Positions 2,870 through 52,354 of a stretch of DNA of 64,000 nucleotides are shown one piece after another (within the stretch, counting starts at the first letter, position 1; each line of letters begins with the position of its first letter). The DNA is taken from positions 31,039 to 95,038 of the forward strand of contig JASFQK010000024.1 of NCBI GenBank assembly GCA_050115495.1. The letters are read 5' to 3'. This DNA comes from Phycisphaerae bacterium (GTDB lineage: Bacteria; Planctomycetota; Phycisphaerae; UBA1845; Fen-1342). The notes under the pieces are model-generated. The model was given only the letters and a program-made list of their open reading frames with translations, was not told the DNA's origin and ran no database searches. A program made the translations under genes and the position numbers.

Positions 2870-5305
2870 ATGTGGCCGTTTGCCAAGAAATCAGCGCGTC
2901 GCCAGGAGATACGCCGCTCGCGTACCGAGCGCGGTGCCGGGCGCGTGTCGCGCCTGCTCGGCCAGGAGCAGTTGCTGCGGGCCGTCTTCCTGGCGGGCGT
3001 GGCGGTGGCGGCGGCGATCCTGCTGAACATCGGGGGGGATGTGCTGCCGTACCGGATTGGGCAGTCGGTGCCGCGGGCGGTGGCCTCACGCTGCGAATTC
3101 TCCGTCGACAACCAGGCGCGGACGCTCGAAAAGCGCTTGCAGGCCTACAACACGGCCGACACCTACTATGAGCTCGACGCGTCGCTGGTACGCGACATTC
3201 GCGGCCGGCTGACCAACGCCCTGCAACTGGCCAAGGAGCACGCCGCCGACCCGGCCGAACTGGTGGCCGAGGCGCGGAAGGTGCGGATCGTGCTGGACGA
3301 CGCCGGCCGGGACGAGCTGATACGGATGGCGACGCTGACCGACACCGCCGAGTTACAGGCGGCGGTGGAGCGTTTCCAGCGTGCGGTGGACAGCGCCATC
3401 AGCCGGCTGGTCTTCCCGCCCTACCAGCTTCCGATTCTGGTCGAGGCGGTGGAGCCGTCGCGGCGAAGGACGCCGCTGAACGCGATCCTGGTGGATCCGG
3501 GTGAGCCACAGGCGAACACGCCCGCGCAACGGCGGGCGGTGCCGGTGGCCCGGCTGCTGAGCACGTCGCGTCCGGATGCGGGTGAGACCGTCGCCGAGGC
3601 CGTGGCGCAGGCCTTCTCGGCCCCGCTGCGGGCGAGCATGCAGGCCTCGATTCTGGCGATGCTGCGTGGCGAGGGCGAAGGTGAGGGCAGTCTGCGGCCG
3701 GTGTACCGGTATCTGCCGGAGCAATCGGAACGGGCCGCCCTCGAAGCCCGCGATCGCGTCGAGACGCAGACGGACACGTACGCGACCGATCAGCAGCTCA
3801 TCGCCGCCGGCCCGATCACCAAAGAGGAATACACCCTCCTGCAAGCGGAGCACGACGCGTACAACACCTGGGTCGCCACCGCGGGGGCGCCGACAACGGA
3901 GCCGGGCGGCGTGGCGGAGTCTGTTGAAGGGGGTGTGCTCGATCGTGAGGCGGCGCAGGCCGCGGCGGCTCGGGCGGCCTGGCGAGCCAGTTGGCTGTCG
4001 GCCGCCGGTCGCGGGCTGCTCGCCCTACTGGTGACGCTGGGTCTGGCGTATCTCGTCTGGCAGATGAAGGGGCGGGTGCGCATCGACCCGCGGCGGCAAC
4101 TGCTCGCGACGGGGCTGCTCATGGGGCTGCTGGCGGTGGCCCGACTGCTGTACGTGCTGACGGGTGTGCCGCACTATGCGGTCGGCGTGCAGGCCTTTGC
4201 GGCTGTGCTGCTGGCCATCGCCCTGGCCCGCGGGCCAGTGCTGGCGGTTTGCGGGGCGCTGGCCCTGCTGATCACGATCGCCACGCGACAGGGCGTCGGC
4301 TTCTTCCTGCTGCTGATGTCGGTGTCGATGGTGCTGCTGGCGGGTTTGCGCGACATTCGCAGCCGCGGGAAGATCGTGGCCGTGGGCAGTGCCGCCGGCG
4401 CGGTGGCCCTGGTTACGGGGCTGGCGGTGGGGCTGATCAACGGGCAGACGCTGAGCTTCGCGTTCTGGCGGCAGGCGGCGCTGGCCGCGGGGGCGACGTT
4501 GGCGGCGGCGTTCATCATCGAGGGCATCCTGCCCACCATCGAGCGGCTCTTCCACTTCAGCACGAGCATGACGCTGCTGGAATGGTGCGATGCCAGCAAG
4601 CGGCTGCTGCGGCTGCTGGCCGCCGAGGCACCGGGCACATACAACCATAGCTTGTTGGTCGGGACGCTCGCGGAGTCGGCGGCGGAGGCTGTCGGGGCCA
4701 ACGGCCTGTTGGCCCGTACCGGGGCCTACTACCACGACGTCGGCAAGATCAACAAGCCCGAGTATTTCGCCGAGAACCAGGCCATGGGCGTCAGCCGGCA
4801 CGACCGCCTCTCGCCGGCGATGAGCCACCTCATCATCATCGGGCACGTGAAAGACGGCATCGAAATGGCGGTCGAGTATGGCCTGCCGGCCAGCCTGCAC
4901 CCGTTCATCGGCGAGCATCACGGCACGACGCTCGTGCAGTACTTCTATCACGCGGCCAGCATGCAGCGCAAACCGGGCGATCGCGAGGTGTCGGACGTCG
5001 AGTTCCGCTATCCGGGGCCGAAGCCACAGTCGAAAGAGACGGCGATCGTCATGCTCTGCGACGGCGTCGAAGGCGCGGTGCGGGCCATGCCCGAACCAAC
5101 CGCTGGCCGGATCGAGGACGTCGTCACCAAGATCGCCCAGCAACGTCTCGTGGACGGGCAGTTCGACGAGTGCGACCTGACGTTCCGCGAGCTCGAGACG
5201 ATCGAGCGCAGCCTGGTGAAGAGCCTCTGCGCCATCTACCACTCGCGTATTCAGTATCCCGAGCGCGGCGACGAGGAGAAGACGGTCAACTCGCGGGCGT
5301 CGTAG
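2870..5305 (+). CDS. 7TM-HD (HDIG) phosphohydrolase, PgpH-like cyclic-dinucleotide phosphodiesterase
   Basis: Extracellular domain, about 7 TM helices, APGTYNHSLLV, YYHDVGK, EHHGTTLVQYFY, FRYPGPKPQSKE; classic phoH-7TM-HD-ybeY order. Confidence 0.9.
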   Translation: MWPFAKKSARRQEIRRSRTERGAGRVSRLLGQEQLLRAVFLAGVAVAAAILLNIGGDVLPYRIGQSVPRAVASRCEFSVDNQARTLEKRLQAYNTADTYYELDASLVRDIRGRLTNALQLAKEHAADPAELVAEARKVRIVLDDAGRDELIRMATLTDTAELQAAVERFQRAVDSAISRLVFPPYQLPILVEAVEPSRRRTPLNAILVDPGEPQANTPAQRRAVPVARLLSTSRPDAGETVAEAVAQAFSAPLRASMQASILAMLRGEGEGEGSLRPVYRYLPEQSERAALEARDRVETQTDTYATDQQLIAAGPITKEEYTLLQAEHDAYNTWVATAGAPTTEPGGVAESVEGGVLDREAAQAAAARAAWRASWLSAAGRGLLALLVTLGLAYLVWQMKGRVRIDPRRQLLATGLLMGLLAVARLLYVLTGVPHYAVGVQAFAAVLLAIALARGPVLAVCGALALLITIATRQGVGFFLLLMSVSMVLLAGLRDIRSRGKIVAVGSAAGAVALVTGLAVGLINGQTLSFAFWRQAALAAGATLAAAFIIEGILPTIERLFHFSTSMTLLEWCDASKRLLRLLAAEAPGTYNHSLLVGTLAESAAEAVGANGLLARTGAYYHDVGKINKPEYFAENQAMGVSRHDRLSPAMSHLIIIGHVKDGIEMAVEYGLPASLHPFIGEHHGTTLVQYFYHAASMQRKPGDREVSDVEFRYPGPKPQSKETAIVMLCDGVEGAVRAMPEPTAGRIEDVVTKIAQQRLVDGQFDECDLTFRELETIERSLVKSLCAIYHSRIQYPERGDEEKTVNSRAS

Positions 5306-5348
5306 CCGCGAGCGTCGTGCGCTGTCCAGGCAACCTGGGGTCCCACCC

Positions 5349-5822
5349 ATGCGTCCCGCTCAACCGCCGCTGGACATCACCGTTTCGTGGCAGCTTCGCG
5401 AGTCGTGGCGGGCACTGCGCCTGCTGTGGCAGGTGGCCGGGCACGTGGCGGCGGCGGAGGGTTTTCACAGCGGGTCGTTGTCGGTGGTGGTCGTCGGGGC
5501 GCGGGCCATGAGTACGCTGCATCAGCGGTATCGCGGGCAGCCGGGGCCAACGGACGTGCTGGCGTTCGACCTGGGGACGGAGCGGCGGCGGGGGATTCTC
5601 GACGGGGAGATCGTGCTGTGCGCTGACGTGGCTCGCCGGCGGGCCGGGCGGCGCGGCTTGGCGCCGGCCCGGGCCGAGCTGGCGCTGTACCTGGCACATG
5701 GCGTGCTGCACCTGGCGGGGTATGACGATCACAGCCCGGCGGGCTTCCGGCGGATGCACGCCCGGGAGGATGACCTGCTGAGCGAGCTCGGTCTGGGACG
5801 GGTGTTCGCGCGGGGCGCATAA
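5349..5822 (+). CDS. ybeY: rRNA maturation endoribonuclease YbeY
   Basis: PTDVLAF and HGVLHLAGYDDH (H3XH5XH) motifs. Confidence 0.93.
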   Translation: MRPAQPPLDITVSWQLRESWRALRLLWQVAGHVAAAEGFHSGSLSVVVVGARAMSTLHQRYRGQPGPTDVLAFDLGTERRRGILDGEIVLCADVARRRAGRRGLAPARAELALYLAHGVLHLAGYDDHSPAGFRRMHAREDDLLSELGLGRVFARGA

Positions 5823-6001
5823 GCCGACAACGGGCGACGGGCCGTTTTTCCACTTTGCAGCGGGGGGCCGCAGTAGTATGTTGAGCGATGGAACGCCCGC
5901 ACGGGATGCAGGCTGTTTGACGGGGCGGCATGTCCCTGGCGCCGGGCGCCTGCGGAGGCCTGGGCAGAGGGGGGCCGACCAAGTACGCCGGGAGGAGCCC
6001 G

Positions 6002-6853
6002 ATGGCGCGGATGAGTTGTCCCCACTGCGGGCAGCAGTATCGTCTCCCCGAGGGACGGCTGGGGCAGAAAATGCGTTGCGCATGGTGTGGGTCCACGTTC
6101 GTGGCCGGGACCGACGAACACAACACATCTCCGCCGCTGCCGGCCAAGCCAGCCAAAGCAGCGGCACCAGCGAGACCGGTTAGAGCAACCAAGCCGGCCG
6201 CAGAGGCCGGCACGCTGCGCGTGTCCTGTCCGAACTGCCAGGCGCACATCAAGCTCCCGGCCAGTGCCGCCGGACGACGGCTGAAGTGCCCGAAGTGCGG
6301 CAAGGTGCTGCGGGCGCCGGGGTCGAGCCCGGCACCGGCTGCCGTACCACCCCCACCGCCGGCACGAGAACCAGCACGTCAAACCGCGAGTGGCGTTGGC
6401 GACGACGACTTCGAAGACCTGATGGCCACGGAGCGTGCCGGCGAGGCGATCGCGGTTGAACGTCCCGTGATGCGAGCCCCGCAGCCGATACCGGAGGCCA
6501 CGGAGACGCCCGCCGCGAGCGAACGATCGTTCTCGTTGTCGATCGGGCCACTGAGCAATCCGTGGATGCTGGCGCTCGCCATCGTGGTCGCATTCACGGT
6601 GACGTTGCTGATCGCGGACGTGGCTCCGGTAATCGGATTGATCGGCCTATGCCTCGCGGCGCTGTTCCAACTTGGCCTGGGGCTGTGCGTGCTGGTCTGT
6701 GCCTTCCGGGAATCCGTGCTCACCGGCATCCTGTGCCTGTGTCTGCCCTTCTACGTGCTGTACTTCATCTATGTGACCTGTGATGACTCACGGCTGAAAG
6801 CGATGTTCAGCGCGTCGCTGGCGATGAACGTCCTGGCCTGGGCCCTGCCATAG
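6002..6853 (+). CDS. Double zinc-ribbon (MJ0042-like) protein with C-terminal membrane domain
   Basis: Two CxxC-x17-CxxC ribbons (CPHC..CAWC; CPNC..CPKC), Pro-rich linker, TM helices. Start chosen at ATG 6002. Confidence 0.75.
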   Translation: MARMSCPHCGQQYRLPEGRLGQKMRCAWCGSTFVAGTDEHNTSPPLPAKPAKAAAPARPVRATKPAAEAGTLRVSCPNCQAHIKLPASAAGRRLKCPKCGKVLRAPGSSPAPAAVPPPPPAREPARQTASGVGDDDFEDLMATERAGEAIAVERPVMRAPQPIPEATETPAASERSFSLSIGPLSNPWMLALAIVVAFTVTLLIADVAPVIGLIGLCLAALFQLGLGLCVLVCAFRESVLTGILCLCLPFYVLYFIYVTCDDSRLKAMFSASLAMNVLAWALP

Positions 6854-6861
6854 CGCGTCAT

Positions 6862-7323
6862 ATGATTGCCCCCACCCAACGAGCCGTCGCACTCCGCACG
6901 CCCAGCCAGCGCTGGTTCGGGCGGCGCAGCGGCGTGGTCGCGTGGGTGATTCTGGCGTTCGCGCTCGTTCACCCGGCGCACGGCCTGGGCTTACCGATTT
7001 GCATGTGGCGGGCGGCGGCCGACGTGCCCTGCCCCGGATGCGGGATGGCCCGCAGCTTGAGCTGCACGCTGCGCGGCGACATCACACAGGCGTGTGCATA
7101 TCACCCGTTCGGCCCGATCTTCGCCGGGCTGTTCGTGGTCATGGGCGTGGTGGGGTACCTGCCGGAATCCGCCCGCGGGCGCTTCATGGCGTGCCTGGAC
7201 CGTCATGGCAGGTGGACAACAGCCGCCTACGTCACGCTCATCGGCGCGTTCCTGGTGTTCGGAGCGGTCCGGGCCCTGGTGGCGTTCGGCCACAACCTCG
7301 CCGGCGGCGCGCCGTGCGGCTGA
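6862..7323 (+). CDS. DUF2752-family membrane protein
   Basis: LPICMWR..PCPGCGMARS..LRGD..A..YHP motif. Confidence 0.85.
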   Translation: MIAPTQRAVALRTPSQRWFGRRSGVVAWVILAFALVHPAHGLGLPICMWRAAADVPCPGCGMARSLSCTLRGDITQACAYHPFGPIFAGLFVVMGVVGYLPESARGRFMACLDRHGRWTTAAYVTLIGAFLVFGAVRALVAFGHNLAGGAPCG

Positions 7324-7333
7324 CGGCGTTCGT

Positions 7334-7981
7334 CTACCGCCGCCGCAGCAGTCCCAACCCAGCGGCGAGCACGAGGACCGGGCTCGTCGGCTCGGGGACT
7401 GGGGTCGCCGACACGGTGAACTGGAACGCGTCCATACCATCTATGGATTCGAAAAACGGCATGGGCACGGTCATCGTGTTACCGTCCACGCGCAGCAGCC
7501 ACTGCGTGCCGACCGGCGGGCCGCCCTCGACACCGTCGGGAACACTGATCAGTTCGAGCGTGTACACCCAGTCGGCCGGCGGCTTGTAGTAGCTGTCGGC
7601 GCGGATGGAGAAGTACATCGTGTCTTCAAGCTCTGAACCCGGTTCGGCCCAGACGTGGATGGGCCCCCAGGTCTTGGAGTCGCCGGGGTCCATCTTGGCC
7701 TTGTGGTCGGTCCGATAAAATCCGGTCGGCCCGGTCCATTCCGGCGGGTTAAACTCGTGGTAGATGGACGCATGCCCGTCGCCGGTGAGCTCGTCCGGCC
7801 AATCGAGCTGGTCGTCCCAGTCGTCCGTGGCGTCGGACCTGACGCCGAACTGGTGCATGGTTCAGCCGCAACCGGGGCCGTAGTCGTAGAAGAAGCGGAA
7901 TTGCTCGGCATCGGCGGCGGCCGGTTCGTTCAAGGCCGTCGCCGCCACGATCAGGCCCAGTGCCCAGACCCAGCGCTGCAT
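7334..7981 (-). CDS. Secreted PEP-CTERM protein with in-frame TGA at codon 40 (candidate selenoprotein; alternatively a nonsense-interrupted gene)
   Basis: GGAG SD, ATG 7981, signal peptide MQRWVWALGLIVAATAL..AAADA, then ..GPGCG-TGA(7864-7862)-TMHQFG.. in the same frame through to VPEPTSPVLVLAAGLGLLRRR*. Confidence 0.75.
7817..7853 (-). promoter_or_regulatory. Putative bacterial SECIS element
   Basis: CCAGUUC-GGCGUC-[AGGUCC]-GACGCC-ACGGACGACUGG: 6-bp upper stem, loop starting 21 nt after the UGA with G at loop position 2, lower stem CCAGU/ACUGG. Confidence 0.65.
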
Positions 7982-8293
7982 TCTGTAGCTCCGCACCGCC
8001 CCGCTGCCACTTGTCACCGACGCCAGCCGGCCCACTGCGGCGCGCAGATCATCCCTGCAACTCGTTCGAGCGAAAGGGATTACCCAGCGCACTTCCAGTC
8101 TCCGGCCCCAACCGACTCGCCGCTGGGTCGATTCTACTGAAACACGTGTCTCAAAACAACCCAGAGCCACCGGGCCGTGGAACGGTATGCGGAATCGGGC
8201 GCGGTATGCGAGGCACGATGTCGCTGCCCCCCTGCCCATCCTGGCCGGTCCGTATAGAATGCCCACAGGCGCCAGCAGGAGGTATGACTGCGG

Positions 8294-9100
8294 ATGTTGC
8301 CGGGTCGCCGTGTGGGCGGATTCACGTTGATCGAGCTGCTCGTCGTCGTCGCGATTATCGCGGTGCTGCTGGCGATTCTGCTGCCGTCGCTCGCTCATGC
8401 GCGGGCCGCGGCCCGGGTCGCCGTCTGCGCGAGCAATCTGCGGCAGCTCGGGGCGGCCGTTCACGTTTACGCGAACAACAACGACGGGCTCATTCCCCGC
8501 GGGCCGGACGGAGCACACCCCTACGACATCACCGGCAACCAGATGGCCACGAACCAGTTGTGGATCGGCTCCGGCACCGCCCCGCCGCCCACCGTCCCGC
8601 ACATGTACCAGGGTCTCGGCCCCCTGCTGAAAACCACCTGCCCCGAAGCGCGAGCCTTCTTCTGCCCGGCGGACGGCAAGCAGAACCTGCAACAGGAGCT
8701 GCCCAAGATCGGCACCGACGAGGACGCCTACGGTTCGTACCTGTATCGCCAGCTCGACCAGTTGCCCGAGGGCTACGAACGCGGTTTGCTCGACACGCTC
8801 GGCGAGAACATCGTCGACGAGGTCGCGATCCCCGTGGAAACCCTGGCCTTCGACATGAACAGCTTCGGTCCCGAGCCGTATTATCAGGCCAACCACGACG
8901 GGCTCGTCGTCAACGTGCTGTACCGCGACGGCTCGGTTCGGCGATTCGCCATGCGCGACGACTGCCTGGCGATCCCGCTCGAAGCCTTCTTCTCGCCGAC
9001 GGGGATCTTCACCGCGCTCGACCAGATCCTGGTTAACGCGGACTACGCCTACCGCACGGGCCGGCCCGCCGAAGCGCCGCGCCTGGAGACCGTCAAATAG
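8294..9100 (+). CDS. Prepilin-type N-terminal cleavage/methylation (DUF1559-like) protein
   Basis: [44 protein letters not shown]. Confidence 0.9.
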
Positions 9101-9111
9101 GATCCTTAGCC

Positions 9112-10506
9112 TTGCCTACGACGCCTGCGATCGCGCTGAACCCGCCGAATTGGGGGACGTGGCGGCCGTGCCTTGCCGCCGGGATTGTCGCCGCTTGTCT
9201 CCTGGCCGCTGTCGCCGACGCGCAGCCGCCACAACCGCTCGACCCGATGTGGACGTGGCAGCCGTCGGAAGGCGTCGAATGGGTGGAGGCGGTGCCGGGT
9301 TCGGAGCCGCCGTTGATGCTCGTGGCGGCGGGCGACGCGAAGCTGTACATCTTCGCCGTCAACCAGGCCCCGCAGCGGCTGCCGGCGTTCGTGCAGGCAC
9401 GGGCCGGCGTGCGACCGGTGCCCTATGCACCGGAAGCGGTTCCGGCCACCACGACGACCACGCAGCCCGCCGCGAGCAGACAGCTCATGTACTGCACCGA
9501 CCGGCTGGCCGCCTACGCCCTGCGGCCCGGCCAGCCGGTGAAGCTCCAGTGGCAGGCCGGAAGCTGGCGCGAGGACTTGGCCGAGCCGATCGAAGGCGTA
9601 ACCACTCCCGAAGACGTGTTCCAGGGCGACCCGGAGCAATTGCCGCGAATCGTCGACGCGGCCGGAACCGGTTACGGCCTGCTACTCCTCCGCGATGACG
9701 GGCTGTTCGGGTTGCTCGACCGCGACGACGGGCACGTCCGCTGGAAACACCAACTCCCGCCTACGACCGCCGCTGAGCTGCATTTCTGCTGCGACCGCGT
9801 GGCGCTGCTGCGGCAGGAAGGGGCCAACGCGGCGGCGGCGTTCGTCGATTCGTCCGCGGGAACGCTCACGGACATTCCGATTCCGCCGGAGACGCCGTGG
9901 CCGCTCTGGAGCGAATTGACGAAAGACGGCCTGCTGCTGGCGCAGCCGACGAGCATCATGTTGTACACGGCGGCGGGCGGGCGGCGGCTGTTCGAGACGA
10001 GCGAAGAGGCGGCGGTGCTGGCCCGCACGCTTCACGTGCACCGCGGGAACCTCCTGCTGTTCGGCACGAACGACGGGCAATTGCACGCACTGGACGTGTC
10101 CGCCGGCCGGGAGCTGTGGGCCACCATCGATCACCCGGATCGGCGGGCCGGCTGGGATCTGCTGCGGGCGCAGGGCGACGAGCTGTTCAGCGGTGCGGGG
10201 CGGCTGCTGGTCTGCCGCGACGTGGAGAGCGGGAAGAGACGGGCGCGGTTCGCCGGACGGGGCGGCGCCCGCCTGCTGGACGTGCGTCAGCGAAGTGAGG
10301 CGCTCTGGCTGGTCTGGGGGGCGGCCGGCGTGAACGGGGAACGACTGCTGCTGGAGCGGCTGGGCTGGACGGCAACGCCGACGCCGAAGTTCGAGCAGCG
10401 GGTGTTCGGGTTGGGTCAGATCGCGCAGCTCCGCAGTCTGGTGTGGATCGAGGATCGATTGGTGGTCGCCGGCGGCGATGGGCTGTCCGTGTTCCCCCTG
10501 CGCTGA
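9112..10506 (+). CDS. Secreted PQQ/BamB-like beta-propeller protein
   Basis: Signal-like N-terminus; LLDRDDGHVRW and LHALDVSAGRELW repeats. Start uncertain. Confidence 0.65.
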   Translation: MPTTPAIALNPPNWGTWRPCLAAGIVAACLLAAVADAQPPQPLDPMWTWQPSEGVEWVEAVPGSEPPLMLVAAGDAKLYIFAVNQAPQRLPAFVQARAGVRPVPYAPEAVPATTTTTQPAASRQLMYCTDRLAAYALRPGQPVKLQWQAGSWREDLAEPIEGVTTPEDVFQGDPEQLPRIVDAAGTGYGLLLLRDDGLFGLLDRDDGHVRWKHQLPPTTAAELHFCCDRVALLRQEGANAAAAFVDSSAGTLTDIPIPPETPWPLWSELTKDGLLLAQPTSIMLYTAAGGRRLFETSEEAAVLARTLHVHRGNLLLFGTNDGQLHALDVSAGRELWATIDHPDRRAGWDLLRAQGDELFSGAGRLLVCRDVESGKRRARFAGRGGARLLDVRQRSEALWLVWGAAGVNGERLLLERLGWTATPTPKFEQRVFGLGQIAQLRSLVWIEDRLVVAGGDGLSVFPLR

Positions 10507-52258: not shown

Positions 52259-52354
52259 GGGAGTGTCCGGGCACCTGGTGGGCTCCGCGGCCTTCAAAGC
52301 CGTTGAGAGGCAGTACAAGCTGTCTCTGGTGGGTTCGATTCCCATCCACTCCCG
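52259..52354 (+). tRNA. selC: tRNA-Sec (anticodon UCA)
   Basis: Acceptor GGGAGTG/CACTCCC plus discriminator G; long D-stem with TGGT loop; GCGGC-CTTCAAA-GCCGT anticodon arm; 8-bp variable arm AGAGGCAG/CTGTCTCT; GTGGG-TTCGATT-CCCAT; CCA not encoded. Confidence 0.93.

Follow-up and report, generated by a model that had tools for sequence, protein, structure and literature searches.

A candidate exported selenoprotein family with a PEP-CTERM sorting tail in Phycisphaerae

Does an in-frame TGA in the genome of a Phycisphaerae bacterium end a short open reading frame (ORF), or is it read as selenocysteine (Sec, U) within a longer one? The question is raised by a locus on the minus strand of contig JASFQK010000024.1 (GenBank assembly GCA_050115495.1), at positions 7334-7981 of the 64,000-nucleotide stretch that we analysed, hereafter the window, whose numbering is used throughout. 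An earlier, sequence-only reading of this DNA had proposed a Shine-Dalgarno sequence and an ATG at 7981, a signal peptide, an in-frame TGA at 7862-7864 and 175 further codons leading to a PEP-CTERM tail, a layout that translation confirmed. The putative complete selenoprotein coding sequence comprises 215 codons, with the TGA at codon 40, and ends with TAG at 7334-7336; a Shine-Dalgarno-like GGAG (7989-7992) is located 7 nt 5' of the ATG (7981-7979). The frame begins with MQRWVWALGLIVAATALNEPAAADA, reaches the TGA through ...FYDYGPGCG, continues with TMHQFGVRSDATD... and, after 175 more open codons, terminates in ...VPEPTSPVLVLAAGLGLLRRR immediately before the TAG. As had also been pointed out, the TGA stands two residues past the only Cys of the protein: Cys38 (TGC, 7868-7870), the presumed partner of Sec40, is the sole Cys codon in the frame and is separated from the TGA by Gly39.

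Judging from the comparisons described below, we consider it highly likely that this gene encodes a genuine, exported selenoprotein of a new family. The protein is very probably secreted and sorted to the cell surface, with the TGA read as selenocysteine. Since the G+C content of the window (68%) makes long open frames common, the open frame alone proves little, and the case for a selenoprotein rests on the comparison with relatives.

The TGA codon and its downstream hairpin

We searched 72 genomes of the same taxonomic family in all six frames, reading through stops, and found matches in 24 of them, at 27 places. Eighteen of these places contained exactly one TGA, 5 were full-length and stop-free, 1 was a fragment lacking its N-terminal part and 3 matched the tail only. 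The homologues aligned with this gene over its whole length, across the TGA, and in all 18 TGA-containing forms, whose proteins are 34-47% identical to this copy, the TGA occupied a single shared alignment column within the motif F-x-F-x-F-A-F-G-x-x-C-(G)-U. The 5 stop-free homologues carried TGT or TGC in that column. In an alignment of 21 sequences (A3; U in 16, Cys in 5), only the U/C column was invariant over the N-terminal portion of the mature protein, and a second Cys was located 1-3 residues before it in all 21 sequences (CGU, CU or CGHC). Similarity extended across the TGA, with F.F.FAFG..C(G)U....GV[WR]S.ATD conserved among the 21 aligned sequences. Protein conservation on both sides and the conserved TGA column place the frame across the TGA beyond chance. 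The sequence-only reading had named homologues with Cys or TGA in this column as support, and both kinds, 18 with TGA and 5 full-length forms with Cys, were recovered.

The family could be traced beyond these genomes. In a class-wide sample of 401 genomes, 9 contained matches. Two additional families of the order to which this genome belongs were represented by TGA forms (L042 and L043), and the single match beyond that order covered the tail only. When 1.84 billion cluster representatives were searched exhaustively and without a profile, 213 relatives were obtained at E <= 0.001, of which about ten are full-length with CxC and about a dozen begin a few residues past the TGA column, with M-G-V-W/R-S.... 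The word-indexed protein search returned only the 174-residue downstream fragment of this gene (P0002) and two relatives, one of which (P0003, 178 residues, from a metagenome-assembled genome (MAG) of Phycisphaerae) starts at the position equivalent to just past the TGA, and a single-protein search of genome contigs confirmed no relative. Selenoprotein genes are systematically split by gene callers, and the Sec forms of this family appear to be annotated in public gene calls as truncated fragments devoid of the signal peptide; in public protein collections, the fragment entries are named 'PEP-CTERM sorting domain-containing protein' or are unnamed.

According to PMC1088965, the selenocysteine insertion sequence (SECIS) of bacteria is a stem-loop that follows the UGA within the coding region and has G in its small apical loop. 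All 18 Sec forms (alignment A1) contain, 15 nt past the TGA, a 7-bp hairpin with an invariant GGUC loop. In this copy, the SECIS-like hairpin occupies positions 7829-7846 (GGCGUC-AGGUCC-GACGCC, with GGUC in the apical loop). RNAalifold applied to the 18 sequences predicted exactly this helix and no other. In the alignment, 96.0% of the cells were paired; shuffling of the columns gave 88.0 +/- 1.5, and controls in which the partner was moved by 1-3 columns gave 26-48%. Compensatory double changes were found in 4 of the 7 stem pairs, and the covariation score was reached by 0 of 500 shuffles, a figure that is not a probability because the sequences are related. Several of the double changes involve synonymous third positions, as when a Ser codon covaries with the first base of the Trp/Arg codon, or the third position of an Ala codon with the first base of the Gly/Ser codon, which is expected from selection acting on the RNA rather than on the protein. 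Thus, the conserved SECIS that the earlier reading had called for is matched by a covarying hairpin in every Sec form.

The hairpin follows the state of the TGA column. When the 18-mers were threaded onto the structure, the 18 Sec forms gave energies of -1.8 to -12.6 kcal/mol (16 of 18 at <= -7; -9.8 in this copy), whereas the 5 Cys forms gave +4.0 to -4.2 kcal/mol and have lost the hairpin. The G-V-W/R-S peptide encoded there is likewise gone from the Cys forms, with the exception of L021 (1489-2127, plus strand), which keeps G-V-W-S and the GGUC sequence although its stem is broken (+4.0 kcal/mol) and looks like a recent Sec-to-Cys conversion. In L043, from another family, a two-codon insertion is accompanied by a corresponding 6-nt shift of the hairpin. 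Searched against Rfam at a permissive threshold, the hairpin region had no match.

The hairpin was also used as a query. A degenerate DNA pattern, in which the TGA and a 15-nt spacer precede the hairpin and the next Asp codon, had hardly any matches outside this gene family. Scanned against one genome from each of 185,579 species, it gave 15 matches, every one of which belonged to this gene family and came from a MAG bearing the label Phycisphaerae, Phycisphaerales or 'Planctomycetales'. Of the 20 matches in metagenome contigs, 19 belonged to this gene family, and these copies contributed the further spacings CAU, CSU and CTU.

The machinery needed for decoding is encoded in the same genome, which is 92% complete in 85 contigs. 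The tRNA-Sec that had been reported within the window was found there by ARAGORN on the plus strand (52259-52354, anticodon TCA), 44 kb from the gene, and scored 66.7 bits against Rfam RF01852 (gathering score 47). SelA (442 bits), SelD (367 bits) and SelB (302 bits, cut-off 242, its C-terminal part continuing in frame), the presence of which had been left to be checked, all scored above the curated cut-offs. The selD gene (L010, contig C36) itself carries one in-frame TGA, in the motif G-U-A-A-K, and a hairpin with an AGGUAC apex is located about 27 nt past that TGA. Because SelA is present in 68 of the 72 same-family genomes, selenocysteine use appears to be a trait of the whole taxonomic family. 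In ~30 of these genomes, a single open frame matches the SelA model as two separate segments (positions 1-183 and 192-366), a sign that some members of the taxonomic family may have an insertion in this protein.

Two explanations dispense with selenocysteine. In one, translation would terminate at the UGA, the downstream part being made separately from the ATG at 7858 or never, or else the UGA would be read through by a standard tRNA. Gene callers do predict the downstream ORF (P0002), and this copy has an ATG two codons past the TGA. However, a downstream-only product would have the sorting tail but lack a signal peptide, and 8 of the 18 Sec forms contain no ATG, GTG or TTG within 12 codons past the TGA, so that separate downstream initiation is not conserved. 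Moreover, the 39 codons upstream of the TGA are conserved as protein, the codon is replaced in homologues by Cys and not by Trp or a variable residue, and the UGA is followed by the covarying hairpin; TGA is also the commonest ordinary stop of the window, ending 20 of the 42 long ORFs with a coding-like G+C content at third codon positions. We therefore regard termination or ordinary read-through at this codon as very improbable. The other explanation invokes a pseudogene or a sequencing or assembly error, that is, a nonsense mutation in a Cys-form gene, which a lone in-frame stop in an otherwise intact gene does resemble if the mutation is recent. However, a stop in the identical column recurs in 18 places of other genomes, diverged as they are, and on the 19 metagenome contigs. 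In addition, independently assembled contigs from two public runs show 0 differences over the TGA: the first run, which may be the source sample, covers the whole stretch at a depth of 21.8, and the second, from a different sample and study, covers 7737-7887 at a depth of 2.2 with the same TGA. Thus, the sense codon that the sequence-only reading had considered as an alternative is seen in neither assembly, and the mutation or error scenario, which the comparative data already contradict, is left with a negligible probability.

Export signals, anchoring tails and fold

Codons 1-25 (7907-7981) encode a putative signal peptide consisting of MQR, a hydrophobic core and A-D-A, with a presumed cleavage site. 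Judged by its sequence, it has typical n-, h- and c-regions ending in A-D-A and forms a helix of residues 3-16 in the structural model; the homologues begin with equivalent hydrophobic N-termini. At the other end, residues 195-215 (7337-7399) form the PEP-CTERM sorting tail, VPEPTSPVLVLAAGLGLLRRR, in which the PEP motif is followed by a transmembrane helix and a basic cluster (RRR). The PEP-CTERM assignment made earlier was upheld by model TIGR02595 and by an exosortase gene in the genome (PF09721, 168.2 bits, contig C7).

Across the family, the Pfam PEP-CTERM model PF07589 matches 54 of 89 members, and PEP-CTERM models overall match 54-56 of 89. In the close clade, 12 of the 21 tails are of the PEP-CTERM type and 9 are two-repeat dockerin-like segments. 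Matches to Pfam Dockerin_1 fall just under the cut-off, and the NCBIfam model of the GC-type dockerin matches 4 family members (best E 6.9e-8). PEP-CTERM and, in a few members, dockerin were the only models that recurred among the 89. The two kinds of tail appear to be alternative extracytoplasmic anchoring modules on one domain, and their occurrence, together with the exosortase gene, argues that the domain works outside the cytoplasm.

The mature domain (residues 26-194, 7400-7906) has no Pfam or NCBIfam model. AlphaFold, run with the 89-sequence alignment, gave a model with a predicted local distance difference test (pLDDT) score of 90.8 and a predicted template modelling (pTM) score of 0.82, comprising the signal-peptide helix, eleven strands arranged as a beta-sandwich and the tail helix. 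Cys38-Gly-Sec40 is predicted to occupy the loop that joins strands 1 and 2, near the mature N-terminus. Other residues that are conserved include Asp53, Asp56, Asp60, His75, Trp82 and Trp111. Foldseek against the PDB returned nothing at E <= 0.001, the best match in the wide VIA-align comparison (Z 4.9) was within the chance range, and a sequence profile compared with PDB sequences gave a best E of 0.079; the lack of fold relatives does not show that the fold is new. Pfam searches with this protein yielded 0 families at E up to 1, NCBIfam and PHROGs scans yielded nothing beyond the PEP-CTERM tail, and protein-atlas placement of a Cys-form relative (P0006) led to an unnamed PEP-CTERM cluster only.

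Two candidate assignments were rejected. The 'CCXG family PEP-CTERM protein' model (3 members) seemed promising owing to its C-C/U-x-G motif, but its alignment with P0009 was confined to the tail, and it was dropped. A thioredoxin-like alpha/beta fold was excluded, as the model is all-beta (11 strands) apart from the end helices and hidden Markov models of the thioredoxin family gave no matches.

Evolution, gene neighbourhood and possible function

A maximum likelihood tree was built from 34 hand-chosen rows: the 21 sequences of A3, 9 representatives with CxC and 4 outgroups lacking Cys. On this tree, the 16 Sec forms were intermingled with the 14 Cys forms, with 8 Sec/Cys switches by parsimony, at least 5 of which are forced by well-supported branches. 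The tree has a midpoint root only, so the direction of the changes is not shown. At one locus (L029), a Cys form and a Sec form are arranged in tandem on the same strand, ~160 bp apart (336-1133 and 1294-2070, minus); the Cys copy could be a selenium-independent backup.

In a genome from another family of the same order (L043, 1462-3357, plus strand), one 632-codon frame encompasses a signal peptide, the Sec domain, a dockerin-like segment and a multihaem cytochrome c. The cytochrome part matches Cytochrome_C554 (PF13435, 58.5 bits), Paired_CXXCH_1 (PF09699, 47.3 bits) and Cytochrome_C7 (PF14522, 44.5 bits) and contains about nine CxxCH motifs, counted by eye.

On the reading that we prefer, the locus would be a single gene for a 215-residue selenoprotein precursor. 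By the established bacterial mechanism, SelB with Sec-tRNA(Sec) would bind the hairpin on the translating mRNA and insert selenocysteine at the UGA. The signal peptide would then carry the protein over the cytoplasmic membrane by Sec-pathway export, the PEP-CTERM helix may serve as a handle for the exosortase of this genome, and the beta-sandwich domain would end up in an extracytoplasmic location, at the cell surface or in its matrix. There, Cys38 and Sec40 could cycle between the thiol/selenolate and selenenylsulfide states, and this redox centre might pass electrons to and from multihaem cytochromes or other partners at the surface. The weakest step of this explanation is the function. We tentatively favour, as the most likely function, an extracytoplasmic redox centre with a reversible Cys38-Sec40 selenenylsulfide, given the close Cys-Sec spacing, which recalls other redox selenoproteins (PMC13188914), the repeated Sec/Cys exchange and the cytochrome fusion.

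Several observations weigh against parts of this picture. In this copy of the hairpin, the loop-closing pair is A-C, which leaves a 6-bp stem and a 6-nt loop; the single-sequence fold of 7800-7870 is unexceptional (z-score -0.83), and the minimum-free-energy structure differs, the hairpin being present in the centroid only. The pattern scans presuppose the hairpin and hence provide no independent evidence of covariation, and the near-ubiquity of SelA in the taxonomic family cannot separate carriers of Sec forms from carriers of Cys forms. As for the sorting tail, the TIGR02595 match is marginal, at 16.0 bits exactly on the cut-off of 16, and PF07589 has no match on this copy. With respect to function, the cytochrome fusion is a single case, and the 44 flanking ORFs beside the homologues reveal no conserved neighbourhood and no operon partner, so that no partner supports the redox assignment. 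Finally, the more distant database representatives have no Cys at either position, which suggests that the Cys-Sec pair is a clade-specific addition to a scaffold with a separate function of its own; by the same token, the beta-sandwich probably serves some other purpose, which may be binding or structural.

Two other functions can be envisaged for a real selenoprotein at this locus. The Cys-Sec pair could be structural, forming intermolecular selenenylsulfide or diselenide cross-links in a surface layer, fibre or exopolysaccharide matrix. The PEP-CTERM class has been linked to matrix and floc formation, and the tail-only NCBIfam matches include floc_PepA; distant members that lack the Cys pair imply a scaffold that works without redox chemistry; and the weak structural matches (Z 4.0-4.6, below the level that counts) are mostly fibre or pilus subunits. 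However, all structural matches, including the best, are within noise, selenocysteine is costly and normally retained where reactivity matters, and the cytochrome fusion fits electron transfer better than cross-linking, so that we rate a cross-linking role as rather unlikely. Somewhat less likely still is a C-x-U/C-U site that would bind a soft metal or metalloid (Hg, Cu, As, Se/S species) at the surface for capture, detoxification or uptake. The location of the Cys-Sec site in a loop near the mature N-terminus of the model would suit this role, and CU/CxU motifs occur in the metal-related selenoproteins HgcA, MerB-like SaoL, CopZ-family and MbdU (PMC13188914), but no other conserved metal ligand accompanies the pair (His43 and Met42 of this copy are unconserved), and no recurrent metal-resistance or transport genes are located next to the homologues.

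The neighbours that do recur beside the homologues are housekeeping genes only, namely RsgA (5 loci), ThuA (4), HD_5 (2) and peptidase M29 (2). Within the window, the gene is solitary: a DUF2752 gene on one side is convergent with it, and the gene on the other side, for a prepilin-type N-methylation/DUF1559 protein, is divergent from it. The region 2870-7323 (plus) encodes a seven-transmembrane receptor with an HD hydrolase, YbeY, a zinc-ribbon protein and the DUF2752 protein, and the stop codons of the DUF2752 and selenoprotein genes are 10 bp apart. On the other side, the prepilin-type N-methylation/DUF1559 gene, of a kind typical of Planctomycetes, spans 8294-9100 (plus), and the region 9112-10506 (plus) has a weak match to a PQQ_2 (BamB-like) beta-propeller (26.3 bits, under the 27.6-bit cut-off).

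Recognition of the family corrects annotations across an order of Phycisphaerae and reveals at least 5 Sec/Cys switches within one family, including a tandem Sec and Cys pair. The regular hairpin, with its GGUC loop and fixed 15-nt spacing, offers a clean natural SECIS set for the study of SelB recognition in Planctomycetota. Furthermore, the family would be an addition outside the thioredoxin-like folds that dominate known selenoproteins and points to extracellular use of selenium in a group of mostly uncultured anaerobes. It is conceivable, though on the unlikely side, that the full picture holds: a first exosortase-sorted (or dockerin-like-sorted) selenoprotein, built on a beta-sandwich without known relatives, which would place a Cys-Sec pair outside the cells of anaerobic Phycisphaerae and take part, alongside multihaem cytochromes, in extracellular electron transfer or in sulfur, selenium or metal chemistry. 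If so, selenium would be used at the cell surface as well, besides cytoplasmic and periplasmic enzymes.

Comparison with known selenoproteins and sorting systems

A 2026 review (PMC13188914, Table 1) lists 119 prokaryotic selenoprotein families and subfamilies with domain models. None of the 119 is PEP-CTERM, exosortase-sorted or dockerin-anchored, and this protein matched none of the Pfam or NCBIfam models given there, a comparison that covers all but the few families defined through CDD. The literature searched, in which recent descriptions of new families and the BSepDB families are represented through the same review, contained no exosortase or PEP-CTERM selenoprotein, in agreement with the earlier reading, to which no described example was known. 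Full-text search found no relevant literature on selenoproteins in Phycisphaerae. Known selenoproteins have been reported in other Planctomycetes, according to PMC4807772, and the available portions of PMC12013277 and PMC13326102 mention neither Planctomycetes nor secreted forms.

The Cys-Sec pair has many counterparts. As in the CxU/CU selenoproteins of PMC13188914, such as thioredoxin-like Sec.1, rhodanese form 3 and UshA-like, and likewise in ferredoxin-thioredoxin reductase, KCU-star, HgcA and SaoL, a Cys is located 1-2 positions before the Sec, and in the known cases the close Cys supports a selenenylsulfide or a metal site. However, the folds of those proteins are known ones, thioredoxin-like, rhodanese or other, whereas the protein described here is predicted to be an all-beta sandwich with no detectable relative. 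The spacing also varies within the new family, in which CU occurs as well as CxU (x = G, A, S or T). Among eukaryotic proteins, Sep15 has a Cys-Gly-Sec motif and thioredoxin reductase ends in Gly-Cys-Sec-Gly. DUF1573 is common in Planctomycetes. The DUF1573 (PF07610) selenoprotein (PMC13188914) is likewise small, with Sec and Cys two residues apart, but the order of the pair is reversed (UGC versus CGU here), and PF07610 gave no match at E up to 1.

In its export and anchoring, the new protein resembles substrates of the PEP-CTERM/exosortase system (TIGR02595; the flocculation protein PepA), with a putative signal peptide, a PEP motif before a hydrophobic helix, a cluster of Arg residues and an exosortase gene in the genome; its matches to the named PEP-CTERM families, however, cover the tail only. 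The multihaem cytochrome ExtKL, the GSU2204 outer-membrane protein and the octahaem tetrathionate-reductase family, all tied to extracellular electron transfer (PMC13188914), are also extracytoplasmic selenoproteins, and one relative of the new protein is fused to a multihaem cytochrome c. However, they share no sequence similarity with it, and their Sec is located within the cytochrome or barrel, whereas here it is located in a separate predicted beta-sandwich.

The closest parallel in decoding is with the genes for formate dehydrogenase alpha and SelD, in which a UGA is likewise followed by a stem-loop, Sec alternates with Cys and tRNA-Sec is found together with selA, selB and selD. Unlike formate dehydrogenase alpha and SelD, the protein is unrelated to any listed selenoprotein family and its hairpin has no Rfam model. 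Thus, the decoding system appears to be the ordinary bacterial one, and the protein family that it serves appears to be new.

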